A DNA stretch of 64,000 nt from Candidatus Latescibacterota bacterium. Its GTDB lineage: Bacteria > Latescibacterota > CBDEFO01. Positions 3,810-63,610 of the stretch are shown here, in pieces. Within the stretch, counting starts at the first letter, position 1, and each line of letters starts with the position of its first letter. Location of the stretch: assembly GCA_965248755.1 (NCBI GenBank), contig OZ252149.1, positions 4,252,314 through 4,316,313 on the forward strand. The letters run 5' to 3'. The translations under genes were made by a program, and so were the position numbers. Below the pieces are notes generated by a model. That model ran no database searches, was not told the origin of the DNA, and saw nothing but the letters and a program-made list of their open reading frames with translations.

Positions 3810-4021
3810 ATCAGTACCCTTTCATTTGGGTTTATGTGATGACGGAACTAATGGACTTTAAGATACGAACAAGCAGGTCAAAGTCAATTCCTTTTTCACG
3901 GCGAATGACGACCATTATCGAGCGAACTGCGATTATTTGTATAACTTCATAATGCAAAGGATACTATCTGATTAAGATCAATTTCCTTGTCTGTACGGAT
4001 CCATCTGCTTTCGATCCATAC

Positions 4022-4915
4022 TTAGTTGGAGAAAGTTGACTTCATGCGGCCCCAGGTGTCAGCTTCGACCGATGTTGCAGGTACCCAGATGCTGGAATCA
4101 AAGGGGGCCAGGAGATAGTCGACGCAGTTGTCGGCATGATTGTCCAATCTTGTGGCCCCGCTGTTCGTCCAGAAGCCGTTGTAGCCCCCAACTTCGAGAT
4201 CGTCATCGTCCATAACAGCAAAGCCTATTCCGATGATGGCCCCCTCTTCATAGGTATGTATTATGCTATCATCTACACTATTAAAATCTATATCGTCAAA
4301 TCCCATGAAGTATGTCTCCACATTCAGCGTGCCCGGTCCACCAATTACACCAGCAAAGGTCCAGGTAAGGTCGGCATAAGGAGGCAATCCTGCCCATGCG
4401 GCCGCTCCCCAAAACCAGATGGGATTCTCTCTGTTCAGAAAATAGTGATAGTTTTGCGCCTGAGCTGAGTTGTACCTGTCGGGATCCAGATCGAGATCTT
4501 GCATGACCTGGTACTGTCCTCCGCTGTGGTCAGCATCGATGACCCACTCGATCATCTCCCGAATGTCCACCCCTGCGAAGGAAAGAGAGACATCGTCGTA
4601 CCTATCTTCCATTGTATATATCAGGTTAGTCACCGGACTCCATCCTACGATTATCCGTTCGGCAAGGTTAGAGGAGTCCGGATCCCCCAGGCCTCTGACA
4701 GTCTCTATCAGATCGTCATGCGTCACCCAGAACTCTGAGGGAACGTTAGCCCACTCGCTTAGATCGCTGTCTACTTCAATGTTCTGGAACTCATCGGTGC
4801 CAATCGGCACCTGGACAGCAACGAAGTTCCTATCCGACCTCAAATGAGCAGAACCCGTACTTATAGCAAAAAGAACAAATCCCAGGGCTGTAAATATCGC
4901 AAATATTGTCTTCAT
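4022..4915 (-). CDS. secreted hypothetical protein
   Basis: 297 aa; N-terminal signal peptide MKTIFAIFTALGFVLFAISTGSA; acidic, Trp-rich; function not recognisable. Confidence 0.5.
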   Translation of the reverse strand: MKTIFAIFTALGFVLFAISTGSAHLRSDRNFVAVQVPIGTDEFQNIEVDSDLSEWANVPSEFWVTHDDLIETVRGLGDPDSSNLAERIIVGWSPVTNLIYTMEDRYDDVSLSFAGVDIREMIEWVIDADHSGGQYQVMQDLDLDPDRYNSAQAQNYHYFLNRENPIWFWGAAAWAGLPPYADLTWTFAGVIGGPGTLNVETYFMGFDDIDFNSVDDSIIHTYEEGAIIGIGFAVMDDDDLEVGGYNGFWTNSGATRLDNHADNCVDYLLAPFDSSIWVPATSVEADTWGRMKSTFSN

Positions 4916-4953: not shown

Positions 4954-7900
4954 TTATTGTGTCCTTCCGAAGTTATCCAGAAAAAGGACAAAGTCAGAAA
5001 GACCGATCTCTCCATTGCCGTCTAAATCAAATATAGAATTGGCTGAAGTGGTCGTTGTCCCGAACGCATCTAGAAACAGGACAAAGTCGGCAAGGCCTAC
5101 TTCATTGTTCCCATCGAAATCTGCTGCAAGGTCTGGGGGAACAGCAGATATATCAGAGAGATTCAACAACACTGATACATTATCGCTGTTCCAATTAGCC
5201 ACAGCCAGGTCATTTGTCTCATCGCCATCTAAATCTGAAATAAATACGGAATGGGGACCGTCTCCAGCATCAAAGTCCAGCTTATCTTCGAATGTCCCAT
5301 CTCCTTTATTCAAGAATACTGACACATTATCGCTGAAAGAATTAGCGACAACCATGTCATTATCCTCATCACCATCTAAATCCGCGATGAAAACTGAGCG
5401 GGGAAAACTTCCGGCGTCGTAGTCTATCTTAGGTGCAAATGTCCCATCGCCATGGTTCAACAACACAGATGCGTTGTCGTTGAAAAAATTTGCCACAGCT
5501 ATGTCATTATCTCCATCAGCATCTACATCCGAAACGAAAACGGATATGGGACCATTCCCAGTGGGATAGTCCACCTTGTCTGCAAATGTCTCATCTCCAT
5601 TATTCATCAGCACTGATACGTTGTGGCTGGACGTATTAGCTACAGTCAGATCATTATCTCCATCCCCATCGAGATCCGAAGCGAAAATCGAATGAGGACC
5701 AGCGCCAGCGGCGTAGTCGCTCCTATCTGGAAATATTCCATCTCCTTTATTCAGCAACACTGACACACTATTGCTGAGCTGATTTGCCACAGCTAAATCA
5801 TTATCTCCATCGCTATCTATATCCGAACTATAAACCGATATAGGACCATCACCGGCAGCATAATCTATCTTAGGCGCAAATGTGCCATCGCCATTATTCA
5901 ACAGTATTGATACATTGTCGCTGCTGAAATTAGCTACAGCTAAATCGTTATCCCCATCGCCATCTAAATCACCAATGAATACTGATTGAGGAACATCTCC
6001 AGCGGGATAGTCTATCTTGGGCGCAAACTTCCCGTCTCCATCATTAAGTAGCACAGAAACAATATCATTGCTCAGATTAGCTACAGCTAAATCGTTATCC
6101 CCATCGCCATCTAAATCTCCACTGAATACTGATTCCGGTTTTTCCCCGGTGGCGTAGTCAGTCGGAAGTCCGAAAAAGACAAAAGCAAACGCAAATCCAT
6201 TCTCAAGTGTGTCTGCCTTACCGTCAGCATTTGCAACTATCACATCGACAGTACCGACAGGGTGTGCGGGAGGCAGAGCGGTAATTCTATTGCTGGCCAC
6301 TACGACTACATCTATGGCTGCCATATCCCCGAAAGTGACAGTCGCTCCGATCCCGAAATTACTCCCCGTAATCGTCACAAGCGTACCGCCCGATTCTGAG
6401 CCGACACCGGGCCTGATAGATGTCACAACAAGAGGGGGAGGAACAATAAACTCAAAGGCGTTAAAGAGCGTGTCTGTCTGACCGTCTGGATATGTGAGTA
6501 TCACATCCACAGTACCAACAGGATGACCGGGAGTCAGAGCGGTAATTCTATTGCTGGCCACTACGACTACATCTGTGGCTGCCATATCCCCGAAAGTTAC
6601 AGTCGCTCCGATCCGGAAATTACTCCCTGTTATCGTCACGGACGTACCGCCCAATTCTAGGCCGGAAGTGGGACTGATAGATGTTACAACAGGAGGAGGA
6701 GGAACAATAAACTCAAATCCGTTAAAGAGTGTGTCTGTCTGACCGTCGGGATTTGTTACTATCACATCGACAGTACCGAGAGGATGAGCAGGAGTCACAG
6801 CCCTAATAGCAAGGGAGGATAGTACGGCTACGTCTATGCCTGCCATATCCCCGAAAGTAACGGTCGATCCGATCCGGAAAGTACTCCCTGTAATCGTCAC
6901 AGGCGTACCGCCCGATTCTGAGCCGACACCGGGCCTGATAGATGTCACAACAAGAGGTCCAGTAAGGACAAACTCAAAGCCACTAAAGAGCGTATCTGCC
7001 TGACCGTCGGGATTTGTTACTATCACATCCACAATACCGAGAGGATGAGCAGGAGTCTTGGCAGTAATAATACCCAGAAGTCCTACAGCTACATTTGTGG
7101 CTGCCATATCGCCGAAAGTAAGAGTCGCTCCACTCTGGAAATTGCTCCCCGTTATCGTCACAGGCATACCGCCCAATTCCGTGCCAGAGGTAGGACTAAT
7201 AGATGTCACAACTGGAGAAAGCGGCACATTAGACCGATTCAACAACACTGATACACCGTTGAGATGAGCCGTAACCAGGTCATTATCTCCATCCCCATCT
7301 AAATCTGCAATGAAGACTGATATGGAACCATCCCCAGCGGTGTAGTCCACCTTAGGTGCGAATGTACCATCTCCATTATTCAACAACACTGACACATTAG
7401 CGCTTTCCAAATTAGCCACAGCAAGGTCATTATCCCTATCACCATCTAAATCTGCAATGAAGACTGATATGGAACGATCCCCAGCGATGTAGTCCACCTT
7501 AGGTGCAAATGTACCATCTCCATTGTTCAATAGCACTGACACAATACCGGGCCTGCTACTAAAGCCTCTCGCATTAGCCACAGCAAGGTCATTATCTCCA
7601 TCTCCATCTAAATCCGCACTGAATACTGACCTGGGATCTTCCGTTGCGTGATAGTCCACCTTAGGTGCAAATGTACCATCCCCATTATTCATCAACACTG
7701 ATACAGTATTGCCGGGACGTCCACTAGCCACAGTCAAGTCATTATCTCCATCCCCATCTAAATCTGCACTGAAGACTGAATTGGAACCAGACTCAGTGGT
7801 ATAGTCCACTTTGTCTGCAAATGTCCCGTCTCCATTATTGAACAGTACTGATACAGTACCCACCACATTAGCCACAGCCAGATCATTATCCCCATCCCCA

Positions 7901-8634
7901 TCTAAATCAACACTGAAAACTGATTGGGGACTATCCCCAGCGGGATAGTCTACCCTAGGTGCAAATGTTCCATTTCCATTATTCATCAACACTGATATAC
8001 TACCGATGTCAACAAATGAAAATAAAGCAGAATTAGCCACAGCCAGGTCATTATCCCCATCTCCATCTAAATCTGCACTGAATACTGAATTGGGAACACG
8101 CCCAGTGGGATAGTCCACTTTAGGTGCAAATGTACCATCTCCATTATTCATCAAGACTGATACAGTGCTGTCGGGGGTGGGGGTGAAACCCCCGAAACCC
8201 CCATTGGCCACAGCCAGGTCATTATCTCCATCTCCATCTAAATCCACGCTGAATACTGACGAGGGTTTATGCCCAGCGGGATAGCTTGTCGGAAGTCCGA
8301 AAAGGGTAAAAAGAAACTCAAATCCATTCTTAAGTGTGTCTGCCTGACCGTCGGGATTTGTGACTATCACGTCCACAGTGTCAGCAGGATGAGCGGGACT
8401 CACAGCTCCAATAGCGAAGGAGAATTTACGGTTTACATCTGTGGCCGCACGATCTCCGAAAGTGACAGTCACTCCGCTTTGGAAATTGCTCCCTCTTATG
8501 CCCACAGCCGTGCGCACGAATTCCGGTCCGGAACTGGGAGTAATAGATGTAACGACAGGAGGTTCCTGTGCATAGGCAGTCGCATTCAAAGCGTACAGCA
8601 GTGCCAGCGCAGTGTAGAGTATGGTTAATTTCAT
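4954..8634 (-). CDS. giant secreted surface protein: FG-GAP/VCBS repeats + four IPT/TIG domains + C-terminal dockerin-like module
   Basis: 1226 aa; signal peptide MKLTILYTALALLYALNATAYA; more than 15 repeats of the type SVFSADLDGDGDNDLAVAN...SVLLNNGDGTFAPKVDY; four modules VVTSISPTSG...TITGSNF...TFGD...VTNPDGQ (IPT/TIG-like); dockerin-like tail DFDGNNEVGLADFVLFLDAFG...DLDGNGEIGLSDFVLFLDNFG. Confidence 0.85.
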   Translation of the reverse strand: MKLTILYTALALLYALNATAYAQEPPVVTSITPSSGPEFVRTAVGIRGSNFQSGVTVTFGDRAATDVNRKFSFAIGAVSPAHPADTVDVIVTNPDGQADTLKNGFEFLFTLFGLPTSYPAGHKPSSVFSVDLDGDGDNDLAVANGGFGGFTPTPDSTVSVLMNNGDGTFAPKVDYPTGRVPNSVFSADLDGDGDNDLAVANSALFSFVDIGSISVLMNNGNGTFAPRVDYPAGDSPQSVFSVDLDGDGDNDLAVANVVGTVSVLFNNGDGTFADKVDYTTESGSNSVFSADLDGDGDNDLTVASGRPGNTVSVLMNNGDGTFAPKVDYHATEDPRSVFSADLDGDGDNDLAVANARGFSSRPGIVSVLLNNGDGTFAPKVDYIAGDRSISVFIADLDGDRDNDLAVANLESANVSVLLNNGDGTFAPKVDYTAGDGSISVFIADLDGDGDNDLVTAHLNGVSVLLNRSNVPLSPVVTSISPTSGTELGGMPVTITGSNFQSGATLTFGDMAATNVAVGLLGIITAKTPAHPLGIVDVIVTNPDGQADTLFSGFEFVLTGPLVVTSIRPGVGSESGGTPVTITGSTFRIGSTVTFGDMAGIDVAVLSSLAIRAVTPAHPLGTVDVIVTNPDGQTDTLFNGFEFIVPPPPVVTSISPTSGLELGGTSVTITGSNFRIGATVTFGDMAATDVVVVASNRITALTPGHPVGTVDVILTYPDGQTDTLFNAFEFIVPPPLVVTSIRPGVGSESGGTLVTITGSNFGIGATVTFGDMAAIDVVVVASNRITALPPAHPVGTVDVIVANADGKADTLENGFAFAFVFFGLPTDYATGEKPESVFSGDLDGDGDNDLAVANLSNDIVSVLLNDGDGKFAPKIDYPAGDVPQSVFIGDLDGDGDNDLAVANFSSDNVSILLNNGDGTFAPKIDYAAGDGPISVYSSDIDSDGDNDLAVANQLSNSVSVLLNKGDGIFPDRSDYAAGAGPHSIFASDLDGDGDNDLTVANTSSHNVSVLMNNGDETFADKVDYPTGNGPISVFVSDVDADGDNDIAVANFFNDNASVLLNHGDGTFAPKIDYDAGSFPRSVFIADLDGDEDNDMVVANSFSDNVSVFLNKGDGTFEDKLDFDAGDGPHSVFISDLDGDETNDLAVANWNSDNVSVLLNLSDISAVPPDLAADFDGNNEVGLADFVLFLDAFGTTTTSANSIFDLDGNGEIGLSDFVLFLDNFGRTQ

Positions 8635-11245: not shown

Positions 11246-12605
11246 CAAGTAGCAGCATCTCTTCCCGAAAAGAAGTCAGGTTACTTTGTGTTCTTCGCGC
11301 CTTGACGCTATATCCTGTTCAACCTGGCGCGGTAGCAATGCCCACAGCGCCCGTGAGACCTGCATGACTTAGATACGTTTCGGATAACCTCAGTATAACC
11401 GAAAGCCGATCAAAAGCCTCCAGACCTGATGCGTATTGTCCTCTTTGGGCCCTGCTCCCTTTTCAAATCTGCGAGAGAACTTGTACACTTTCCCCTGAAG
11501 ATGGAGGTAAAACCTGTCACCTTCCTTGCGGCGTTTTATGTCGACTCCGATGTAATCTAATCCTTCCTCCATCCTGTCTATGCCCTCGTCTCCCGAAAAA
11601 GGCACAAGTGCCTCAGCCCTTTCACGGTCGTATTCAAAACCCACCCTAATGTCATTCCAGATCTGATAAGTCGTCCTGAAGAAAGCGTCTCTTTCTTCAT
11701 TCCTGAAGCCCTGCTCTTCTGTGCCTCTCCCGACGTGGTGTCCTACAATCCAATCCCTGTAGATATAGGGGAAGTTGCCAGCGACATCCCCGCTGTGCGC
11801 ATACCAGCCGTTCGGCGCCGAGATCCCTCTCCTCAAAAACCTACTTTCGACGACCTGAAATAGCCTTGCTAACTCTATCCTCAGATCCGCCCTTCCGTCC
11901 CTAAATAGGTCTCCAAGGTACGCACCTATCAAATAAGCACTATTGCGGCCCCAAGGTATTACCCTCCTTGCAAACCCCGGGTACCACACATCGTCTCCGG
12001 CTGTTAAACCATAGAGCTTAACGTAATCGTATAGATATACACTCCCCCCCACCTCAGCGATGGCATTGCCTCTTATATCCCCTGCTGTCTGATTAAGAAT
12101 GCTCTCTATGGGGTTCTCCTTAATGACGCCCCCGACGCTTGCTCCTACAGCGATCTTGTTTAGACCGACATTCCCCATATCACATTCATGAGGGATTGTA
12201 TTTCGATACAATCTTGTTTGTGAATGAATATTACCACTTTTACATTTTTCAACAAGTATTTTTTTCAATTAATTATAGTATTTTCCTCTGAATTATCACT
12301 TTCTTTGTGTTTAAATCCTCCAAATCGGAGACACCTCTCCATCGACTCACAAAAAAATGTGGCAGTTTAAACAGAGTAATATCGCAATCGTTCAATCCGG
12401 GATAATATTTCGGTAAATAAGCTCTTGTCTATCCCAACCTCAGCCATCTGAAACGTGATGTATCTGCTGTGCCTGACAAGCTTCGCGCCAATCTTGATCA
12501 ATGTCACGAGGAGGCTGCCAAGAGACCCCGGGATAATATCAGTGTTTGATTCTCCCTGGAAGAACCAACCGCCTTAGCCCGATTAATTCATAAACTTGCT
12601 GGAGT

Positions 12606-12628
12606 TATTGCGAGGAGCAAAGCGGTCC
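12606..12628. repeat. palindromic element copy (TCCCCGATTGAGTCTATCGGGGA)
   Basis: 7-8 bp perfect stem with 7-nt loop; member of a dispersed family (see findings). Confidence 0.8.
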
Positions 12629-12714
12629 CCGATTGAGTCTATCGGGGAAGCAATCTCAAGGTTTTATAGTGGTCTCCTATGAGAGTCGGAGAGTATTACA
12701 TCTACCACAAGTAA

Positions 12715-12738
12715 CCCCCGATTAAATCTATCGGGGGG
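12715..12738. repeat. palindromic element copy (CCCCCGATTAAATCTATCGGGGGG)
   Basis: Same stem and loop architecture, 109 bp from the previous copy in direct orientation. Confidence 0.8.
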
Positions 12739-12933
12739 ATTGCTTCGCCTTCGGCTTGCAATGACACCGAAGGTGGTTAAACGGCATAACTATAATATAA
12801 TACAATCCCTTAATTAATACACGGACTTTTTTTGTGAATTATTCGCCTCAGAAAGTTTCCAAGATTATAGGCCAGAAGAAATAACCAGAGCCTCACCTGA
12901 TCCCTTTCTGAACCCACATAGCATTGATATCTG

Positions 12934-13317
12934 TCAGGTGATATCTGACAGGCTGTTGAGATTTTCCAACTGAGTCAGTATCTCCGTTTCAAAACGTCCT
13001 ATCGTGTTGGCGCTGGCGGCGTGCTTGCCTTTGCCCTTCTTTCCGGTAATCGCTCGCATTACTGGGTCAACTGGTAAAGGATGAGCATTATTCACAGCTT
13101 CATATCCTGCAAGACGACTGTAAATCGATTGACGCATCAGTGTGGGCATATCATGTTGGATATTAAGTCCTCTTCGTAGATCGTTAAAAAGACTAGATAC
13201 TGAGTCGAATAATCCTAAAACGTCATCGAGGTCACGATACGCAAGAAGACCACCATCAGATGTCACCTTGGCACGATCAAATTCAAGCTTAATAGTTCCA
13301 TCAAATCCCATATTCAT
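12934..13317 (-). pseudogene. IS1380-family transposase, N-terminal fragment
   Basis: 127-aa ORF LEFDRAKVTSDGGLLAYRDLDDVLGL...YSRLAGYEAVNNA matches the conserved N-terminus of IS4/IS1380-type DDE transposases; the catalytic core is missing. Confidence 0.6.
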
Positions 13318-14278
13318 CCTTTCACCCTCTGGATGATCAATACTTATCCGCCATTTCCGAGTCTTATTTATTGTAATCTAACATGTTCTGGTGACTTTGA
13401 CAACCGTTTTTCGGGTCTAATATGAGGAATGGTGGTTAGATATGTCCACTGGAGCCTTGCGGTAATAAGGCTTACCTCATCTCCGGTTCGACTTTGAAGA
13501 CCGTCGATAATAGAGGTGCTCCCGGACACTGGACCCAAACTATGTTCTATCTGAATGGACCTAAGAGGAGGAGCGTTGTCTGTCAACACAAAATTTCCAT
13601 GGTAGCCCGGTCCCCACCATTGTCTGCTCTTCCCAAATAAAAAATCGGTCCTCAGAAACCTTACTTTAAGATAGACCTCGTCTAACTTTGCTACGGTTCT
13701 CTCGTCCTTTCCGAAAAGGTAAGGAGATGCAAAAAAGGCAGCATAAGGCGTAATACTTGCTCCTACATCTATTTTGGCCCCGATGCTGCCGCCCTTGGAA
13801 AAGTGATAAGGCTCAATATTATCCACATTTTTAACTGCCGCTCTGGTAGCTCCAAAGAGGGTTAACTCCCCCTTTATGTAAGGGATAAAAAGTTTTTTCC
13901 TTTTTCCCCGCTCTGCCTTTGCTATATCCTCCAATTCGAGTCGAAACTCGTGCTCAAGGTCTAAGACCCATCTTTCTACCTCCAAAGACAATGCCGGCTT
14001 ACTCTTTGACAGTCCATAAACTAAAAGAGCGGCCTCATAACGTCCGATGGGTTTGCTCTCGGACGGAGGACGCTCTAAAAGTCCCTTTGTGTTTAACCTT
14101 TCCAGGATACCGTACGCCCAGTGATGCAGGGGCAAAGCGACAGATGCTCTCCTTTCCTGGAACGGAGTCCACGTTCTACCTTGTGCCCAAACCTTACCGG
14201 CGTTAGCAGTACTGAGGTTCCCAAGCAGTATCGGAGAACTTTTTGGGGAAAAGAGGATTAGGGCAACATACGCACAAC

Positions 14279-18957: not shown

Positions 18958-18991
18958 TGACAATTTGTTGATCTGTAGCGATATTTGGGAC

Positions 18992-19776
18992 ATGAAAAAT
19001 TGCCCTCGCTGCAGGGGAAGAAAATTTTGGTTACTGAAGACTGGTCAGTTACGCTGTCGGAGGTGTAAATTGACTAGAAAGTTGACCTCCTCCTCCTGGG
19101 AGAAAACTCGAATGTCTCCGTACTGGAAGGGGAGGTTGGTTGAGTATTTTTGTCTTGGTGTTCCTGTTTACCGGTTGCGATTCCATGTTCCATACACGAG
19201 GAAGACTATGGAGCGCTGGTATCGGATCATTCGAAAGGAAATCTACCACCTCACCTTCAAGGAGCTTGAACTCCTTGAAGGTGAGGTGGAAATGGACGAA
19301 ACTCTCTTTGGTGGTAGAAGGCCTGGTAAGAGGGATTGGGGTGCTTTGGGCAAACAGATGGTCTTTGGGATCTATCAGAGAAAGGGTAAGGTGTTGACGT
19401 TTCCTATCTCGTCAAGGAGTCGTGACTCACTGTTGCCTCTTATTACCCAACACATCAAACCAGGGAGCTTATATTACACTGATGATTGGATAGCCTATGC
19501 CTCCCTTTCTATCAGTGGCAACCACGTGGTAGTGCCGAAAGAGAAGGGAATAGCTAGAGGAAGAGATCACCTTAATGGCGTGGAAGGTTTCTGGTCGTAT
19601 GCCAAACACTGGCTTTACCAGCGATCCCCGATTGATTCTATCGGGGAGGTGTTGACAAAAACTCCTTCCACCTTTACCTTAAGGAGATCGAGTGGTGCTT
19701 CAACCATCGCCACGAAAATCTCCTTCCACTTATAAGAAAGCTACTCGATCAACAAGCTGTCAAAGAGCTAAATTAG
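18992..19776 (+). pseudogene. IS1595-family transposase interrupted by a palindromic element
   Basis: N-terminal zinc ribbon CPRCRG...CRRC and DDE core with HLNGVEGFWSYAKHWLYQ; the family-typical C-terminus (KNSFHLYLKEIEWCFNHRHENLLPLIRKLL) is encoded in a different frame immediately after the palindrome at 19626-19648. Confidence 0.7.
19626..19648. repeat. palindromic element copy (TCCCCGATTGATTCTATCGGGGA) inside the IS1595 transposase gene
   Basis: Same family as 12606; sits exactly at the frame break. Confidence 0.8.
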
Positions 19777-23048: not shown

Positions 23049-23390
23049 ATGGACGTTTTGCAAACCGTAGTGTCTCAACACCTGAAAGACAATGTTCCTG
23101 ACTTTGGCCCCGGCGATACGGTCAGGGTACATGTCAGAGTCATAGAAGGTGAAAAGGAGAGGACACAGATCTTTGAAGGGACAGTACTGCAAAGGAGAGG
23201 TGGGGGTATATCAGAGACATTCACAGTCCGAAAGGTATCCGCAGGTTACGGCACCGAAAGGATCTTCCCGCTCCACTCTCCTGGAGTAGCCAAGATCGAA
23301 CGCATCCGAAGAGGGAAAAGCAGACGAGCGAAACTCTTTTACCTCAGAAAGCTCAAAGGCAAAGCCGCCAGAGTTGCAGCAAGAAGGTAG
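23049..23390 (+). CDS. rplS: 50S ribosomal protein L19
   Basis: 113 aa; typical L19 sequence; last gene of the operon. Confidence 0.9.
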
Positions 23391-23433
23391 GTGGCGCACC
23401 TCTGCTAAGCGATGTTTCTTGCTCTTTTCCATT

Positions 23434-23470
23434 GCCCCATCACAGCTGTCCGATGGGGCGTTTTATTTAT
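23434..23470 (+). terminator. Rho-independent terminator of the ffh-rplS operon
   Basis: Stem GCCCCATC / GATGGGGC with 10-nt loop followed by GTTTTATTTAT. Confidence 0.6.
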
Positions 23471-23499
23471 CCGTCAAAGTGGTGCGACCGCTCCGTGAT

Positions 23500-25143
23500 A
23501 TGAAGAAGATCACACCTTTCCATATATTAGCGATCGTTCTTACAGTATTCTTCTGCGCCGTAAGATACATTAGATGGCAGGAGCCTATGGGACTTGACCA
23601 GGGTCTCTTTGCCTACTTCGGAAGACACATCCTCACCGGCAGTGTCCCCTACTTAGACATCTGGGACAGCAAACCTCCCGCTATATTCTATATATACTCC
23701 ATCAGCTTTGCTCTACTGGGGGACTCCTTTTTCAGCGTCTTTCTTAGCGAAACCCTATTCTTGGCTCTCACGGCCCTCTTGATCTATCTTCTGTGCGCAG
23801 AAGTTTTCGATAAGACAGTCGCCCTATTTGCCGCGGCCATCTACGTTCTCTTTTCCAACGCTTCTATATTCGACGGATTCTGGTCCACAGCACAGGCTGA
23901 GGTCTTCATGAACTTGCCCATAGTCGCAAGCTTCTACATCCTCACCAAGAACTTAAGGAGATGGCACTTTTTCGCCTCTGGGGTTCTTCTCGGACTGTCA
24001 GCGATGTTCAAACTTACCGCCCTATTCCTGCTACCCTCTTTTATCCTGTATCTCTACCTATCCTGCAAAGAGAGATCCCCGATTGAAGCTACCGGGGATG
24101 GGATTCACAGGTACACATATTTCGGCATCGGACTTATCATCCCCCTGTCAATCTGCGCCTTCTACTTCTGGATGCAGGGAGCCCTGGACGATATGATTTA
24201 CACACTTGTCTCTTACAGCTACCGGTACTCGCAAGCCATAAACCAGGGACATCCTTTTCTCAAGACTTCCCTTGGACAGGTCATAAGGTTTGTCTATTTC
24301 AACCCCACAGTATCCATTTTATCCCTCGTCGGACTTATATATCTCCTTGTAAAAAGACGTTCTAAAGAAACGTATCTTTTAATATCCTATCTTGTGCTAT
24401 CCTTTATTTCGGTCTGTGCGCAAAGACAGTTTGCAGGGTACCACTTCATCGTGCTCTCTCCTCCGCTTGCCGTTATCTGCGGCAGTGCATGCCCCGTTAT
24501 ATTCAACTGGATAGTCCAAGTCGTGCGACCACTCCGTAGTGCAAGGACGATCCTCCGCAAAAGATCCTCAAAGCCTCTGCTCAGGTCATCGGCAGCTATT
24601 ATGACAGTTGTATTATTAGCCTCCCTTCTTTACGCGGACATTTCCCGTTATTATCGGTACTACAAACCCGACATCGCCTATGCTCTTGGAAAGATCCCCG
24701 AAAGACAATATCTAAAGACCTTTGACAGGGGGGCAATATCCTTTCTGAATAACAACTCTGTAGCTGACTATATAAAAAATAGGACCGATAGTGACGACTA
24801 TGTCTTGGTATGGGGATTAGCTCCTGCTATATATTATCTGTCAGACAGAAAATCTCCCACAAAATACGTCTTCCACCACGTTCTGTTGACCGACGCTCCG
24901 CTGTCCCTCACTCTTGGCGGACTTGAAGAAAGGAGGAGGGAATTCATAGATAAAGTAAGTGAAAGCAAGCCCCGTTACATCGTCATAGGCATCAACGACA
25001 GGAACGGCTTTGAGCCGCAGGACTCCTACACTCAGCTTCTCAATTTCAAAGAGCTCAAGGACTATGTCTTTACAAACTACGATAGAGAGAAAAGAATCGG
25101 GAATTTCATCCTTATGAGGAGAAAAGACCAGAAAGTACTTTAA
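23500..25143 (+). CDS. polytopic membrane glycosyltransferase-like protein (GT39/GT83, ArnT/PMT-like)
   Basis: Start moved to the ATG after the terminator; multiple TM helices; family assignment tentative; contains an in-frame palindromic element at 24076-24098. Confidence 0.5.
   Translation: MKKITPFHILAIVLTVFFCAVRYIRWQEPMGLDQGLFAYFGRHILTGSVPYLDIWDSKPPAIFYIYSISFALLGDSFFSVFLSETLFLALTALLIYLLCAEVFDKTVALFAAAIYVLFSNASIFDGFWSTAQAEVFMNLPIVASFYILTKNLRRWHFFASGVLLGLSAMFKLTALFLLPSFILYLYLSCKERSPIEATGDGIHRYTYFGIGLIIPLSICAFYFWMQGALDDMIYTLVSYSYRYSQAINQGHPFLKTSLGQVIRFVYFNPTVSILSLVGLIYLLVKRRSKETYLLISYLVLSFISVCAQRQFAGYHFIVLSPPLAVICGSACPVIFNWIVQVVRPLRSARTILRKRSSKPLLRSSAAIMTVVLLASLLYADISRYYRYYKPDIAYALGKIPERQYLKTFDRGAISFLNNNSVADYIKNRTDSDDYVLVWGLAPAIYYLSDRKSPTKYVFHHVLLTDAPLSLTLGGLEERRREFIDKVSESKPRYIVIGINDRNGFEPQDSYTQLLNFKELKDYVFTNYDREKRIGNFILMRRKDQKVL
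24076..24098. repeat. palindromic element copy (TCCCCGATTGAAGCTACCGGGGA) inside a coding sequence
   Basis: 19 of 21 identity to the family consensus; 6-bp stem; read-through in frame as RSPIEATGDG. Confidence 0.6.
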
Positions 25144-28530: not shown

Positions 28531-28903
28531 CGAACAACCTCGTCCTTGAAGGCTTCAGCACCTTCTTCAGATGATCTACAATTACCGAACTGTCCATCCC
28601 ACCTGGTGGCTTGCTGCCGCCCCTGAAAGAATCATTCGGGGACTGTTCGTCCCTCCCGTCACAGGTCAGAATATCCACAGCCATAAATCCCTCCTCAGCC
28701 CAGGTGTGGACGCTCACGTGCGACTCGGAGATCATGACAAATCCGCTGAATCCGTAAGGCTCGAACTGATGAAAGTGATGGTGCACGATCCTGGCACCTG
28801 AAAGCTTCACAGCCTCTATCAATACGCTCTTGACAGGCTCTACCTGCTTCAAGAGGTCTATGTTATCAAACCACATATCCAAAAGGATGTGGCTCCTTGT
28901 CAT
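28514..28903 (-). CDS. speH: S-adenosylmethionine decarboxylase proenzyme (small bacterial/archaeal type)
   Basis: 129 aa; processing-site motif in FVMISESHVSVHTWAEEG. Confidence 0.8.
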   Translation of the reverse strand: MTRSHILLDMWFDNIDLLKQVEPVKSVLIEAVKLSGARIVHHHFHQFEPYGFSGFVMISESHVSVHTWAEEGFMAVDILTCDGRDEQSPNDSFRGGSKPPGGMDSSVIVDHLKKVLKPSRTRLFDAERG

Positions 28904-30056: not shown

Positions 30057-32622
30057 CTATCCTGTCGTGCCGAAGTTATCCAGAAAGATCACAAAGTCAG
30101 ATAGACCTACTTCTCCATCGCTGTCCAAGTCATACGCAGAATCCCAATCGACTGAACTGGTAGTTGTTCCGAACACATCTAGAAAACGGACAAAATCGGA
30201 GAGACCTACTTCATTATCCCCGTCGAAATCTCCTACAAGGTCAGGGACGACAGTAAAGTCAGAGATATTCAACAACACTGACACACTGTCGCTCCATCTA
30301 TTAGTCACAACAAGGTCATTATTTCCATCTCCATCCAAATCCGCACTAAAAACTGACACGGGACCATTCCCAACACTATAGGCCGCATTAATTTCAAATG
30401 TCCCATTTCCATCATTCAACAACACTGACACATTATCACTGTTCTCATTAGCTACAGCCAAGTCATTATCCCCATCCCCGTCTAAATCCACACTGAAAAT
30501 TGATATAGGACTGTCCCCAACAGCATAGTTCATCTTAGGAGCAAATGTTCCATTTCCATTATTCAACAACACTGATACACTATCGCTGCCAATATTAGCT
30601 GTTGCTAAGTCATTATCTCCATCTCCATCTAAATCTGTACTGAATACTGATGCGGGTTCATTTCCAGCGTCATAGTCTGCCCTAAATGGAAATGCTCCAT
30701 CTCCACTATTCAACAACACCGATACATTTTCGCTAATAAGATTAGCCACAACTAATTCATTATCCCCATCCCCATCTAAATCCACACTGAAAATTGATAT
30801 AGGACCCTCCCCAACAGCATAGTCCACCTTAGGTGCAAATGTGCCATTCCCATTATTCAACAACACTGATACATTATCGCTGTTCCAATTAGCCACAGCC
30901 AAGTCATCATCCCCATCTCCATCTAAATCTGTAATGAATACTGACTCGGGACTACCCCCAACTGCATAGTCAGTCCTGGGTCCGAAAAGGACATCGACAA
31001 AAGCAAATCCGTCAGAGAGTGTGTCTGTCAGACCATTGGGATTTGTAACTATTACGTCTACAGTGCTAATAGGATGAGCGGGAATCACAGCGGTGATCGT
31101 ACTGGAGGATACTATGACTACGTCTGTGGCTGCTCTATCTCCGAAAGTAACAGTTGCTCCACTTTGGAAATCGCGGCCTTTTATCGTCACAGATGTACCA
31201 CCCAATTTCGTGCCGAAAATAGGATCAATAGATGTCACAATAGGGGGAACCCCAATAAAAGCAAATCCATTAGACAGTGTGCCAGCCTGACCGTCGGGAT
31301 TTGTGACTGTCACATCCACAATGCCAACGGGATGAGCGGGAGTTGTTGCGGTAATGGTACCCCAAAGTCCTACAGCTACATTTGTGGCATCGCTCTCGCC
31401 GAAAATAACAGTCGCTCCACTTTGGAAATTGCTCCCTGTTATCGTCACAGACGTACCCTCTAATTCCAGGCCAGAAGTGGGATTGATAGAGGTTACAGCC
31501 AGAGAAGGTATCACATCGGAGAGATTCAACAACACTGATACATTATCGCTACCCAAATTAGCCACAGCCAAGTCGTTATCACCATCTCCATCTAAATCCA
31601 CACTGAATACTGATTCGGGACGACTCCCAGCGGCATAGTCTACCTTAGGTGCAAATGGTCCCATTCCCATTATTCAATAACACTGATACATTATCGCTGA
31701 GGAAATTAGCCACAGCTAAGTCGTTATCTTCATCACCATCTAAATCTGCAATGAATACTGAATAGGCATGATCCCCAGCGGGATAGTCCACCTTAGTTAC
31801 AAATGTCCCATTCCCATTATTCAATAACACTGATACAGTACCGTCGAATACAGAATTAGCCACAGCCAAGTCATTATCCCCATCTCCATCTAAATCTGCA
31901 ATGAATACTGAAGAGGGACCAAGCCCGGCGTTATAGTCTGTCTTAGGTGCAAATGTCCCATCTCCTTTGTTCAACAACACTGATACATTATAGCTGTTCC
32001 TGTTAGCCACAGCCATGTCATTATCCCCGTCTCCATCTAAATCTGCGATGAAAACTGAAACGGGATTATCCCCAACAATCAAGTCTACCTTAGGTACAAA
32101 TGTTCCGTTCCCATTGTTCAATAATACTGAAACGCTATCGCTCCCTGCATTAGCCACAGCGAGGTCATTATCTCCATCCCCATCTAAATCTGCAATGAAT
32201 ACTGAACGGGGGAAAACCCCAGTGCCATAATCCACCTTATGCCCAAATGTTCCATCCCCATTATTTAACAACACTGATACAGTACCTGGGGGGATGTTAT
32301 TAGCCACAGCTAAGTCATTATCCCCATCTCCATCTAAATCCGCACTGAATACTGAACGGGGATATTCCGTAACACCATAGTCCACCTTAGGTGCAAATGT
32401 ACCATCGCCATTATTCAACAACACTGATACAGTACCTGGGGAGATGCTATTAGCCACAGCTAAGTCATTATCCCCATCTCCATCTAAATCCGCACTGAAT
32501 ACTGAACGGGGTTTATCCCCAGTGGCATAGGAAGTCGGAGGCCCCAAAAGGGCTTGTGCATAGACAGGCGCATACAAAGCGACTAACAGGATCAAAGCAG
32601 TATATAAGATTGCACACCTCAT
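30057..32622 (-). CDS. secreted FG-GAP/VCBS + IPT/TIG + dockerin-like surface protein, second paralogue, with apparent 1-nt frameshift near 31650
   Basis: ORFs 31645..32622 (signal peptide MRCAILYTALILLVALYAPVYAQA plus FG-GAP repeats) and 30057..31670 (FG-GAP, three IPT/TIG, dockerin-like tail) overlap; the frame break lies inside a conserved NNGNGTFAPK repeat. Confidence 0.7.
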
Positions 32623-34076: not shown

Positions 34077-34099
34077 TCCCCGATAGATTCAATCCGGGA
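34077..34099. repeat. palindromic element copy, inverted orientation (TCCCCGATAGATTCAATCCGGGA)
   Basis: Reverse complement matches the family consensus with one mismatch; intergenic. Confidence 0.7.
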
Positions 34100-58019: not shown

Positions 58020-59365
58020 GGGTCTGTCAGTTTTTTTGTGTAAATGGGATTTTCTTCTGTACCCTTTTCGGCTTATTCTATACCAAATCTCCCCTCGAAG
58101 TGGATGGAGAATTGGTGAATGGCCAAGCTCCAGTTCCTGATCGGCATCGTCCATTTTTTCTTGATATTCTTGAGTGTCATATAGAGTAACTTAATCGCTG
58201 TCTCGTCGTTTGGGAAGCTATTTCTGTTCTTTATTACTTTCCGTAGAGAGTTATTAAGCGATTCGATGGCGTTTGTGGTATAGATCACCCTTCGGATCTC
58301 TTCAGAGTAGGCGAAAAACGGGATGATCCGAGACCAGTTATTCTGCCACGATTTACTTATCATCGGATAACGGCTGTCCCAAGCCTCCTGAAAATCTCCA
58401 AGGGCCTCTTCAGCCTGTTCTACCGTGGGGGCTCGGTATATATTCTTGAGGTCGGCGGCAATCTTCTTACGATCCCTATACGACACGAACTTCAAGGAAT
58501 TCCTCACCACATGGACAATACAGAGCTGGACCTCTGCTTGGGGAAATACGGATTCAATAGCCTCTGGAAGACCCTGGAGACCATCCACGCAAGCTATCAA
58601 CACATCGTTCATCCCCCGATTCTTAAGCTCCGTGAAAACTTGCAGCCAGAACTTCGCCCCCTCGCTCTTTGCAATCCAGATACCCAAAACGTCTTTCATC
58701 CCATCCAGACCGACCCCTACCGCAAGATACACCGCCTTGTTTACGATCCGGCCTTCGTCTCTAATCTTCATCACCAGAGAATCAAAGAATACTATGGGAT
58801 ACACCCCTTCCAAAGGACGATCCTGCCACTGCTTCACCTCTGATATGATCCCATCGGTCACAGTCGATATCAAATCAGGGGCACCTCTACACCGTATATC
58901 TCCTCCAAATGAGCCTGTATATCACGTGTGGTCATCCCTCGGGCATACATAGACAGTATCTTATCATCAAAACCTGTAAATCGCCTCTGCCCCTTCCTCA
59001 CTATCTGCGGATCAAACTGACTGTTCCGATCCCGTGGCACCGATATCTCCAGATCACCATAATCTGTCTTCAATCCCTTTGTGCTCCTACCGTTGCGCGA
59101 ATTACCGCTGTTCCTCCCTTCTGGAGAACTCTTATCGTAGCCTAACTCATACGTAAGCTCTGACTCCAGAGCCCGCTCAAGAATCGCCTTCGTCAACTGC
59201 TTCAAAAGACCTTCCTAACCAATTATGTCTTCCGGCTTCTTGTAATCCTTCAAAAGCTCATCAATCAACTTCGGGTCTAGCTTGTCCATGTAAGAACTCC
59301 TTATGTAAATGGTGGACAACTAATATAACTCATTTCCCCATTTACACAAATTTCCTTACACACCC
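58020..59365 (-). mobile_element. IS256-family insertion sequence, copy 1 (inactivated), flanked by 8-bp TSD TCTATATC
   Basis: Termini GGGTCTGTCAGTTTTTTTGTGTAAATGGG / CCCCATTTACACAAATTTCCTTACACACCC form imperfect IRs; identical 8-mers at 58012-58019 and 59366-59373. Confidence 0.85.
58073..59319 (-). pseudogene. IS256-family transposase, inactivated (1-nt deletion plus nonsense codon)
   Basis: Split into ORFs 58073..58873 and 58870..59205; relative to copy 2 lacks one A near 58878 and has GAG to TAG near 59203; also a Q to R substitution. Confidence 0.85.
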
Positions 59366-60860: not shown

Positions 60861-60938
60861 GCGCCCATGGCTCAATTTGGATAGAGCATCTGACTACGGA
60901 TCAGAAGGTTGGGGGTTCGAGTCCCTCTGGGCGTGCCA
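60861..60938 (+). tRNA. tRNA-Arg (anticodon ACG)
   Basis: Cloverleaf folded by hand: acceptor GCGCCCA/TGGGCGT, D-stem GCTC/GAGC, anticodon stem TCTGA/TCAGA with loop CTACGGA, T-stem GGGGG/CCCTC with loop TTCGAGT, discriminator G, encoded CCA. Confidence 0.8.
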
Positions 60939-61534: not shown

Positions 61535-61819
61535 GTGGATCGAGATGCTCTCTTCGACTTTACTTGCTCTGGCTGTGGCCAGACATCCTTCTGGAGTTGG
61601 GATTGTCGGCAATTCAGGATTAGGGATCTGTCAGTTTTTGAATTTAAGGCCTACCTGATCATAGATAAATATCGCACCAATTGTCCAATCTGCGGGGTGA
61701 AGATTGAAGGACTTGACTTTGTTGATTCTTATTACCGATGCACTGCCGAACAATGGATTAAGGTAGGCAAATATGCTCTGAACTGGGTCCGGCTATCATG
61801 CCAGCGTCCCCGATTGTGA
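61535..61819 (+). pseudogene. ISL3-family transposase, N-terminal fragment
   Basis: CSGCG...RIRDLSVFEFKAYLIIDKYRTNCPICG matches the zf-ISL3 N-terminal pattern; ORF stops at the palindromic element. Confidence 0.5.
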
Positions 61820-61852
61820 TCCCCTATTGAATCTATAGGGGAGCGGGGATCA
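61807..61852. repeat. compound palindromic element (TCCCCGATTG + TGATCCCCTATTGAATCTATAGGGGAGCGGGGATCA)
   Basis: Contains the family loop TGAATCT in a nested hairpin; sits between the ISL3 and IS1380 fragments. Confidence 0.7.
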
Positions 61853-61853
61853 G

Positions 61854-62096
61854 GTGAGGCTCTGGTTATTTGTTCTGGCCAATAATCTTGGAAACTTTCT
61901 GAGGCGGTTGGTTCTTCCAGGGATAATCAAATACCGCTCTCTTGGCAGCCTCCTTGTGAAATTGATCAAGATTGGCGCGCAGATTGTCAGGCACAGCAGA
62001 TACATCACGTTTCAGATGGTTGAGGTTGGGATAGACATGAGGTTATTTGCCGAAATATTATCCCGGATTGAACGATTGCGATGTTACTCTGTTTAG
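61854..62096 (+). pseudogene. IS1380-family transposase, C-terminal fragment
   Basis: LANNLGNFLRRLVLPGIIKYRSLGSLLVKLIKIGAQIVRHSRYITFQMVEV matches the conserved C-terminus; near-identical DNA to 12368-12560 on the opposite strand. Confidence 0.6.
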
Positions 62097-62263
62097 AAGC
62101 CTTGTGAAATAGTTATCTTGTAGGCAGCGTCTGAAACGTCTATTATGGGTCAAACAGTAGCATATCGTATCGTTTTGCTATGGAATAAGCAAAATAGTCT
62201 CATCAGAGTTCTGGTCAGCAAGGAATAGAAGCTGTTTGAAGAACAGGATGCACTGTCTTTGAA

Positions 62264-63610
62264 GGGTCTGTCAGTTTTTTTGTGTAAATGGGATTTTCTT
62301 CTGTACCCTTTTCGGCTTATTCTATACCAAATCTCCCCTCGAAGTGGATGGAGAATTGGTGAATGGCCAAGCTCCAGTTCCTGATCGGCATCGTCCATTT
62401 TTTCTTGATATTCTTGAGTGTCATATAGAGTAACTTAATCGCTGTCTCGTCGTTTGGGAAGCTATTTCTGTTCTTTATTACTTTCCGTAGAGAGTTATTA
62501 AGCGATTCGATGGCGTTTGTGGTATAGATCACCCTTCGGATCTCTTCAGAGTAGGCGAAAAACGGGATGATCCGAGACCAGTTATTCTGCCACGATTTAC
62601 TTATCATCGGATAACGGCTGTCCCAAGCCTCCTGAAAATCTCCAAGGGCCTCTTCAGCCTGTTCTACCGTGGGGGCTCGGTATATATTCTTGAGGTCGGC
62701 GGCAATCTTCTTACGATCCCTATACGACACGAACTTCAAGGAATTCCTCACCACATGGACAATACAGAGCTGGACCTCTGCTTGGGGAAATACGGATTCA
62801 ATAGCCTCTGGAAGACCCTGGAGACCATCCACGCAAGCTATCAACACATCGTTCATCCCCTGATTCTTAAGCTCCGTGAAAACTTGCAGCCAGAACTTCG
62901 CCCCCTCGCTCTTTGCAATCCAGATACCCAAAACGTCTTTCATCCCATCCAGACCGACCCCTACCGCAAGATACACCGCCTTGTTTACGATCCGGCCTTC
63001 GTCTCTAATCTTCATCACCAGAGAATCAAAGAATACTATGGGATACACCCCTTCCAAAGGACGATCCTGCCACTGCTTCACCTCTGATATGATCCCATCG
63101 GTCACAGTCGATATCAAATCAGGGGACACCTCTACACCGTATATCTCCTCCAAATGAGCCTGTATATCACGTGTGGTCATCCCTCGGGCATACATAGACA
63201 GTATCTTATCATCAAAACCTGTAAATCGCCTCTGCCCCTTCCTCACTATCTGCGGATCAAACTGACTGTTCCGATCCCGTGGCACCGATATCTCCAGATC
63301 ACCATAATCTGTCTTCAATCCCTTTGTGCTCCTACCGTTGCGCGAATTACCGCTGTTCCTCCCTTCTGGAGAACTCTTATCGTAGCCTAACTCATACGTA
63401 AGCTCTGACTCCAGAGCCCGCTCAAGAATCGCCTTCGTCAACTGCTTCAAAAGACCTTCCTCACCAATTATGTCTTCCGGCTTCTTGTAGTCCTTCAAAA
63501 GCTCATCAATCAACTTCGGGTCTAGCTTGTCCATGTAAGAACTCCTTATGTAAATGGTGGCCAACTAATATAACTCATTTCCCCATTTACACAAATTTCC
63601 TTACACACCC
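62264..63610 (-). mobile_element. IS256-family insertion sequence, copy 2 (intact transposase), no TSD
   Basis: Same termini as copy 1; flanks TCTTTGAA and ACGAAATC differ. Confidence 0.85.
62317..63564 (-). CDS. IS256-family (mutator-type) transposase
   Basis: 415 aa uninterrupted; typical IS256 sequence features. Confidence 0.9.
   Translation of the reverse strand: MATIYIRSSYMDKLDPKLIDELLKDYKKPEDIIGEEGLLKQLTKAILERALESELTYELGYDKSSPEGRNSGNSRNGRSTKGLKTDYGDLEISVPRDRNSQFDPQIVRKGQRRFTGFDDKILSMYARGMTTRDIQAHLEEIYGVEVSPDLISTVTDGIISEVKQWQDRPLEGVYPIVFFDSLVMKIRDEGRIVNKAVYLAVGVGLDGMKDVLGIWIAKSEGAKFWLQVFTELKNQGMNDVLIACVDGLQGLPEAIESVFPQAEVQLCIVHVVRNSLKFVSYRDRKKIAADLKNIYRAPTVEQAEEALGDFQEAWDSRYPMISKSWQNNWSRIIPFFAYSEEIRRVIYTTNAIESLNNSLRKVIKNRNSFPNDETAIKLLYMTLKNIKKKWTMPIRNWSLAIHQFSIHFEGRFGIE

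Follow-up and report, generated by a model that had tools for sequence, protein, structure and literature searches.

Elements of the IS1380 family of insertion sequences (ISs) are typically about 1.65 kb long, as described in ISfinder, and generate target duplications of 4-5 bp. They are characterized by a transposase of the DDE_Tnp_1_4 (PF13701) type and by short inverted repeats starting with CC, and their deletion derivatives, which resemble miniature inverted-repeat transposable elements (MITEs), keep both ends but lack the catalytic core. Another class of small elements, the TA-duplicating MITEs of the Tc1/IS630 type, such as the Correia elements of Neisseria, comprises multicopy sequences with terminal inverted repeats (TIRs) and flanking TA but without an open reading frame (ORF). 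The palindromic elements of Rickettsia can be read through in frame within genes. Finally, repetitive extragenic palindromic (REP) sequences and REPINs, which are mobilised by REP-associated tyrosine transposases (RAYTs), are short imperfect palindromes that are mostly extragenic, lineage-specific and present in hundreds of copies, show covariation in their stems and cause no target duplication; their general properties are described in PMC3116915 and PMC3337134.

Here we describe two loci, copy A (61.5-62.1 kb) and copy B (12.2-13.4 kb), in a 64,000-nucleotide stretch of contig OZ252149.1 from a Candidatus Latescibacterota bacterium (positions 4,252,314 to 4,316,313; hereafter, the window). 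A first-pass annotation had placed at 61.5-62.1 kb an ISL3 N-terminal fragment that stops at a compound hairpin, followed by the last about 240 bp of an IS1380-family element, and had proposed that the hairpin and the IS1380 3' end form a repeated unit, which recurs on the opposite strand at 12368-12628. Our analysis leads to a different picture. Both places are very probably decayed copies of one IS1380 lineage, and the hairpins link them because an abundant REP-like palindrome has landed in dispensable DNA. The "recurrent junction" is ordinary mobile-element debris and not a unit, and all of its components are of known kinds, namely an IS1380 deletion derivative, a TA-duplicating MITE, a REP-like palindrome family, and IS fragments next to a tRNA gene. 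The coordinates of all features are collected in Table 1.

The two IS1380 3' segments are indeed homologous and lie on opposite strands. In a BLAST self-comparison of the window, A 61846-62095 matched B 12904-12368 at 88-97% identity as two inverted blocks, A 61846-61906 with B 12904-12844 (61 nt, 96.7%, E 2.6e-18) and A 61899-62095 with B 12577-12368 (210 columns, 87.6%, E 5e-60). The C-terminal part of the IS1380 transposase is encoded in both segments (DDE_Tnp_1_4 profile 358-434/435, E 3e-13; in A, by an 80-codon ORF at 61854-62096), and an IS1380 N-terminal fragment is present in B, as had been noted. The compound hairpin of A was confirmed (DNA fold -11.2 kcal/mol, z -2.4), and members of its family occur near the B module (3 matches against 0.00 expected). 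The homology of A and B and the hairpins that they share are genuine and far above chance. The boundaries first assigned to these segments did not hold, however. The stretch 61854-62095, taken as the 3' end of the element, is the end of the transposase ORF, and B as well as two further copies, L001 from another assembly and L073 from a metagenome-assembled genome (MAG), extend about 200 bp more to the right inverted repeat. The module of B actually covers 12368-12904 rather than 12368-12628, and it is split by an insert of about 270 bp that owns both hairpins. This insert lies at position 61906/61907 of A, 58 nt downstream of the hairpin there, and the loops are oppositely oriented relative to the IS. 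The alignment is confined to transposase-coding DNA, and the hairpins belong to different inserts at non-equivalent positions, which argues against a repeated unit made of hairpin and IS1380 3' end.

Table 1. Features of the two IS1380 loci, of their neighbourhood and of the hairpin family in the window. A slash marks a sequence junction
Feature	Position	Strand	Details
Copy B, non-autonomous IS1380 internal-deletion derivative, 1.27 kb	12165-13435	-	Left inverted repeat CCACCATTCCTCATAT, right inverted repeat ..ATATGGGGAATGTCGG; ends set against L001 and L073
MITE, about 270 bp	12575-12845		TIR GCCCGATTAATTCA.. and ..TGAATTATTCGGGC; within the IS1380 3' part of B; owns both B hairpins
Hairpin copy in MITE, site 1	12627-12647	+	Missing from MITE copies L045 and L002
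Hairpin copy in MITE, site 2	12716-12736	+	Missing from most MITE copies
B-type deletion junction	12901-12910	-	CAGAAAG/GGA(TCAGG); about 680 nt of catalytic core gone
N-terminal IS1380 ORF of B, 127 codons	12934-13317	-	DDE_Tnp_1_4 profile 4-113, E 2.7e-23
Hairpin copy interrupting an IS1595-family transposase gene (18965-19776)	19625-19647	+	L020 paralogue (84% identical) uninterrupted (..CAATATCGAGGCGTT..), 20 nt difference
Hairpin-like copy, one stem mismatch	24076-24098	+	Translated in frame (RSPIEATGD); falls in a loop of a polytopic membrane protein (ORF 23374-25143, 589 codons)
Degenerate hairpin copy	28621-28641	-	Window scan
Intergenic hairpin copy, one stem mismatch	34077-34099	-	Window scan
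ISL3-family transposase N-terminal fragment, about 68 codons	61535-61741	+	Zn_ribbon_ISL3 (PF14690) residues 10-53, E 4.1e-7
IS1380 fragment of A, part 1	61735-61806	+	Encodes ..TAEQWIKVGKYALNWVRLSCQR; matches full-length P0010 and P0039 (..GTAEQWIKEGKYALNWTRLSCKRFVSN..); upstream of hairpin
Compound palindrome of A, 43 nt	61807-61849		TCCCCGATTGTGA-TCCCCTATTGAATCTATAGGGGA-GCGGGGA; inner 23-mer 61820-61842
IS1380 fragment of A, part 2	61850-62096	+	Final 82 transposase codons (..QVRLWLFVLANNLGNF..RLRCYSV); stop 62094-62096; PF13701 match
IS5/IS1182-like element (IS-X), terminal 170 bp	62093-62262	-	Cut by the next IS; Latescibacterota MAG loci have 12 or more copies (92-95% identity)
IS256-family element, copy 2	62264-63610	-	415-aa Mutator-type transposase, Transposase_mut E 2.9e-127

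Both element ends are missing from copy A, which is an internal piece of IS1380. The ISL3 fragment next to it starts as annotated, with its zinc ribbon, and lacks a DDE domain, which makes it a fragment only; the hairpin is not its end, since IS1380 coding DNA (about 61735-61806) lies between the two. The fragment is joined in frame to IS1380 sequence somewhere within 61729-61742, and the IS1380 homology of A to L073 begins at 61735-61742. The final 22 codons of the "ISL3" ORF are IS1380 sequence, for which full-length IS1380 relatives have GTAEQWIKEGKYALNWTRLSCKRFVSNRVRLWLF, and the ISL3 fragment therefore ends at about 61735-61741. Because IS1380 coding DNA lies 5' of the hairpin, the hairpin interrupts the IS1380 reading frame and does not form its boundary. 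The 43-nt unit, TCCCCGATTGTGATCCCCTATTGAATCTATAGGGGAGCGGGGA, takes the place of about 11 nt (TTCGTCTCGAA, codons FVSN) of the IS1380 ORF, as seen by alignment of A with the native site, ..TCATGCAAACGT-TTCGTCTCGAAT-CAGGTGAGG.., in five hairpin-free relatives (L079-L083, from metagenomes, 82-88% protein identity). Copy A lacks the 3' untranslated end of about 200 bp and the right inverted repeat, its homology to B, L001 and L073 halting at the stop codon. Neither element ends nor a target duplication were found in A; its homology begins within the ORF, at about 61735, and remains of other ISs lie on either side.

Copy B is a transposed non-autonomous IS1380 derivative of about 960 bp without about 680 nt of the catalytic core. 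Its inverted repeats (CCACCATTCCTCATAT and CCGACATTCCCCATAT) are identical at 13 of 16 positions, and its ends are common to L001 and L073. The 5-bp target duplication TCTAA is found on both sides (13436-13440 and 12160-12164), and in silico excision of 12165-13435 together with one TCTAA rebuilds a Wzi-like ORF of 547 aa, the ORFs that flank B matching Caps_assemb_Wzi. The rebuilt frame of 547 codons, the two TCTAA copies, and the ends fixed by comparison with L001 establish B as a true transposition product, and for annotation, 12.2-13.4 kb is best treated as a non-autonomous IS1380 derivative whose insertion knocked out a Wzi-like gene for capsule assembly. The idea of a non-autonomous derivative, raised in the first-pass annotation, thus stands for B, with its two inverted repeats, its target duplication and its sibling L001, but the hairpin plays no part in that unit. 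No intact transposase is encoded by B: the frame is broken at the deletion junction (..VQKGIR followed by a stop), and the N-terminal ORF ends early through a 14-bp tandem duplication (12925-12952), from which L001 is free. L001 is a clean copy with the identical deletion junction and no MITE insert; it was reached via the MAG protein P0003, the C-terminus of which (..VQKGIR) reads across the B-type junction. B also differs from L001 by 13 extra nucleotides at 12525-12537, a duplicate of ATATTATCCCGG, which stands 131 nt further downstream.

Copy B shares with the IS1380 family the transposase type, the inverted repeats starting with CC and the 5-bp duplication, and with the deletion derivatives of this family the retention of both ends without the catalytic core. 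The loci differ from typical members in that A is an internal fragment and B was later hit by a MITE and small duplications, and from the described derivatives in that the end point of the B-type deletion seems tied to a foreign hairpin. Our search with the IS1380 transposase returned hundreds of homologues, and internal-deletion derivatives with many different junctions are common in the protein database (P0002, P0004-P0007, P0014, P0030, P0036, P0046, and P0051).

The insert that splits the IS1380 3' part of B at 12577/12844 is a MITE, of which at least 14 further copies with the same ends and 83-97% identity are present in Latescibacterota MAG loci (15 copies aligned). It has TIRs of about 15-17 bp, no ORF, and, in nearly all other copies, TA on both sides. 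In size, TIRs, TA flanks, copy number and lack of an ORF, it is similar to the Tc1/IS630-type MITEs, from which it differs in that its copies vary in 21-23-nt hairpins and that the right end of the window copy is aberrant. The MITE copies hold 0, 1, 2 or 3 hairpins at fixed sites, and this variation indicates that the hairpins were added to the MITE secondarily. No parent IS630-like element of the MITE was identified, and no Rfam family covers the MITE or the hairpin, the Rfam scan of the whole window giving a tRNA-Arg only. In the window copy, the right TIR is truncated or aberrant (..ATTCG/CCTCAG), with the consensus GGC and TA replaced by a repeat of the IS1380 target CGCCT (12840-12850). 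The target of the MITE reads CCTCAG (no TA) in A and L073 and CCTTAG in L001, which may reflect gene conversion between IS copies.

The hairpins themselves form a family with a 21-nt core, CCCCGAT-TGAATCT-ATCGGGG, within a palindrome of 21-23 nt that is closed by a covarying T:A or C:G pair. The window contains seven copies, five on the plus and two on the minus strand. A scan of a genome collection with CCCCGATTRANTCTATCGGGG gave at least 77 loci, most of them from one Latescibacterota MAG (CBDEFO01) and others from several MAGs labelled Deltaproteobacteria or Thermodesulfobacteriota; together with the window, these loci hold 152 unique hairpin copies, although copy numbers and densities are biased because the loci were chosen for containing hairpins. 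The bases just outside the core, which played no role in the selection of copies, pair as T:A in 79 cases, C:G in 51, T:G in 13 and C:A in 2 (Fisher p 2.8e-24), and compensated variants of the stem occur as well (CCCCAAT/ATTGGGG five times, CCCCTAT/ATAGGGG four times). Open frames of at least 150 codons, which take up 80% of the bases, contain 26% of the copies (40 of 152). Nesting is frequent, with at least 25 copies located inside another copy's loop. The 43-nt unit of A has this compound architecture, and L071 has an identical unit at an unrelated site. The hairpin is absent from 80 related IS1380 loci from metagenomes covering 250 kb, and it therefore belongs to the host lineage and not to the IS.

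On sequence grounds, the hairpin family has the profile of a putative REP-like element, with which it shares the short imperfect palindrome, the hundreds of mostly extragenic copies, the restriction to a lineage, the covarying stem and the absence of target duplications. It differs from REP and REPIN sequences in that a conserved GTAG-like head at the 5' end is missing, that copies are single or nested in loops and not arranged as inverted doublets with a spacer, and that, unlike in the system of REPINs and RAYTs, the gain of a copy often loses or changes a few target bases. The copy at 24076-24098 resembles Rickettsia palindromic elements in being read through in frame in a gene, although the hairpin is far shorter and this is the single such case in the window; it may be either an insertion tolerated by the gene or a chance resemblance. 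A literature search found no paper on such repeats in Latescibacteria. What is new is confined to the palindrome family of an uncultured lineage, its nesting, its disabling of other mobile elements, and a potential role of the hairpin feet as break points.

Two further kinds of palindromic sequence were observed in the scanned loci. Tandem arrays with a 27-nt period on the minus strand of L021 (about 3800-4400 and 6900-7100) consist of a hairpin subfamily, GCCTGT-CCCCGAA-TGACTCT-ATCGGGG, that has a 5' GCCTGT head and a mismatched stem. In L073 (4310-4362, minus strand), the IS1380 fragment is closely preceded by a different, much longer perfect palindrome, whose stem spans about 23 bp (CTGAACTCCTCTGTATCCCCCC..GGGGGGATACAGAGGAGTTCAG) and which has a partial 34-nt match with 88% identity in L021.

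Filled and empty site pairs taken from repeated elements provided insights into the gain of hairpin copies. In an IS5-like copy, GATCTGATC^GACAC gains CCCGATTGAATCTATCGGG cleanly at the centre of TCGA, with a net change of +19. A net change of +20 was found for the IS1595 copy of the window (19625-19647) compared with L020, for site 1 and site 2 of the MITE, and for a second IS5-like site. The subfamily with the GCCTGT head shows a clean gain of +27/28, and the compound unit in IS1380 corresponds to a net +31 with a loss of about 11 nt. Several of these pairs have one to three neighbouring bases altered and none has a target duplication; TCGA or a similar centre is found in most targets. No single rule of clean insertion, be it of a 23-mer, of a 21-mer replacing CG, or of a 19-mer at TC^GA, fits all pairs, and an origin of the compound hairpin by insertion into a stand-alone variant with a YCGR loop was rejected because no such stand-alone variants exist. 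Being dated insertions into ISs and MITEs, these natural filled and empty pairs could reveal how tiny palindromes spread and any promotion of deletions by them.

The hairpin in A is not a local accident. The IS1380 3' part of L073 is 96% identical to A over 361 nt (61735-62095) and carries the same 43-nt hairpin at the same site, which indicates that a hairpin-bearing allele was inherited. Unlike A, L073 has the full IS1380 3' end; its left boundary differs from that of A, and the left end of its IS1380 fragment adjoins a second compound hairpin. In B and L001, the deletion junction reads CAGAAAG/GGATCAGGTGAGG (AAAG/GGATCAGG), and its GGGA is identical to the bases with which the compound hairpin ends in A and L073. 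The hairpin allele has ..GCGGGGATCAGGTGAGG at this site, and the B junction, GGGATCAGG, agrees in every base with the hairpin's 3' foot (..GCGGGGATCAGG) as found in both A and L073. All five hairpin-free relatives have ..C(G/A)AA(T/C)C(A/G)GG here, a poorer fit to the B junction, and N is found at this codon in every full-length IS1380 protein. Since the relatives read AA(T/C) and the full-length proteins have N, the GA of the GAT codon would come from the hairpin and have been kept in B. This comparison makes it probable that an IS1380 copy already carrying the hairpin underwent the B-type deletion, whose right end would lie 3-4 nt into the hairpin's 3' foot. The first-pass annotation had also considered a deletion end point that recurs at the hairpin; the match of the B-type junction with the hairpin foot is in line with this idea, and the B junction and the left end of L073 give it some support, which, with one diagnostic base and two coincident break points, is suggestive only.

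Among independent short IS1380 proteins of other lineages, P0004 and P0005 read WIDR/GTAEQWIK, as at the ISL3 junction of A, and P0006 reads /KGVVHF, as at the left end of L073. Together with P0007, these proteins may mark deletion hot spots or may reflect an effect of match ranking.

Several other explanations of the two loci have to be weighed. It appears highly improbable that the hairpin and the last about 240 bp of IS1380 make up a separate and possibly mobile repeat unit of which the window has two copies. Hairpins of the same family do lie near both IS1380 3' segments, and a hairpin-bearing IS1380 3' part is also found in L073, but the hairpins differ in position and orientation relative to the IS, those of B belong to a separate multicopy MITE, and A has IS1380 sequence 5' of its hairpin while the IS end is missing. 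Moreover, neither a target duplication nor a common outer boundary defines such a unit, as the differing left boundaries of L073 and A illustrate. The hairpin could alternatively be a functional part of IS1380, such as a terminator, a transposase-binding site, or a programmed frameshift structure, and two IS1380 copies, each from a different assembly, do have it at one and the same site, which would fit this role. We rejected this explanation, the likelihood of which is close to nil, since none of the 80 related IS1380 loci (250 kb) has the hairpin; its gain also costs the ORF four conserved codons and, at +31 nt, puts it out of frame, and the hairpin occupies more than 150 unrelated, mostly intergenic sites in addition to MITE, IS1595, and IS5-like copies.

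A possible though unlikely explanation of the B-type junction is coincidence, the deletion having occurred in a hairpin-free IS1380 at a point that merely became the hairpin site of another copy later. Internal deletions in the IS1380 family are common and varied, P0007 has the same 3' break, apparently without needing a hairpin, and the diagnostic difference is a single base; on the other hand, the B junction corresponds exactly to the hairpin foot in A and L073 where five hairpin-free relatives have AA(T/C), a match within about 4 nt over about 1 kb has a chance of about 1%, and the second IS1380 break in L073 also adjoins a hairpin. As for the hairpins themselves, we find it distinctly doubtful that they are abundant small DNAs captured as filler during break repair by end joining and not transposed units. 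Such capture would account for the variable net size change (+19 to +31), for the loss of 0-11 target bases with altered adjacent bases and no target duplication, and for the break points of IS rearrangements at hairpin feet. It is at odds with the clean +19 event at the centre of TCGA and the clean +27/28 events. The strong preference for YCGR-like centres and for the loops of existing copies also speaks against it, as a pattern pointing to an enzyme that selects its sites, and free hairpin DNA has no known source. On balance, a trans-acting enzyme of the REP-transposase kind is weakly preferred over break capture.

In the history of the two loci that we favour, decay of one IS1380 lineage with hairpins landing in it, a hairpin would have entered one IS1380 copy once, and the disabled allele would then have been copied, giving rise to the copies in the window and in the Latescibacterota MAG. 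An allele of this kind would have been the source of the B-type deletion. In B, the loss of about 680 nt from the interior of the IS left a derivative with both inverted repeats, which transposed into the Wzi-like gene with a 5-bp duplication. Afterwards, B gained the TA-flanked MITE, already bearing its two hairpins, as well as the 14-bp tandem duplication and the 13-nt templated insert. An enzyme encoded by the host and acting in trans, most likely a transposase of the REP type (Y1/HUH), would have disseminated the hairpins. A more far-reaching proposal is that the 19-23-nt palindrome is a minimal mobile DNA that integrates without target duplication at TCGA or YCGR centres, including its own loops, disables ISs and MITEs, and offers its feet as preferred break points for deletions of the B type. 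We regard this as doubtful; if true, a palindrome of the host lineage would shape the decay of other mobile elements by a mechanism unlike the known behaviour of REP sequences and RAYTs.

A number of points weigh against the favoured history. The link between deletion and hairpin consists of one diagnostic base (GGAT against the native GAAT or GAAC) and a positional coincidence, and no true hairpin-free parent belonging to precisely this IS lineage was found. The distant in-frame derivative P0007 (..WVDRAMA/QVRLWLF..) breaks at the same protein position, so this site may be fragile for other reasons, or the search may have favoured such matches. The census of hairpins carries the selection bias mentioned above, and net changes of +19, +20, +27/28, and +31 with changed flanks misfit a simple peel-and-paste mechanism like that of IS200/IS605. 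In addition, no transposase is tied to the hairpin: a scan for the Y1_Tnp motif over about 0.68 Mb of loci found no RAYT flanked by these hairpins, and the only Y1_Tnp genes, in L029 and L006 of another MAG, have different flanking palindromes.

These IS200-like Y1_Tnp genes (L029 4168-4860, E 2.4e-16; L006 6019-6387, weak, 1e-3) belong to a hairpin-carrying MAG labelled Deltaproteobacteria. The palindromes that flank them (GGGACACATCCC.. and GGGAGGGGCTTGTCCCCTCCC) make them look like separate pairs of the REP/RAYT type. Hairpin-flanked genes in L007 and L037 were considered as candidate transposases and proved to be ordinary oxidoreductase genes.

The surroundings of copy A are rich in other IS remnants. 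IS-X, the IS5/IS1182-like element that follows the IS1380 fragment, runs on in L012 into DUF772 and DDE_Tnp_1_6 ORFs. A tRNA-Arg gene (60861-60938) lies beside the pile of IS fragments, and the region at 61.5-62.1 kb is best annotated as an IS graveyard next to this gene, with pieces of ISL3, IS1380, IS5-like, IS256, and IS3 elements, and not as a new composite element. Two IS256-family copies, at 58020-59365 (with a broken ORF) and 62264-63610, are in direct orientation and 99.6% identical over 1347 bp. They enclose an HD-domain gene, the tRNA-Arg gene, and IS debris, and could serve as a composite transposon or as a substrate for deletion.

Elsewhere in the window, very large minus-strand ORFs at 5160-8620 and 30260-32550 contain long arrays of 147-nt (49-codon) and 261-nt repeats, which are common to these two loci of repeat-protein genes 23-25 kb apart.

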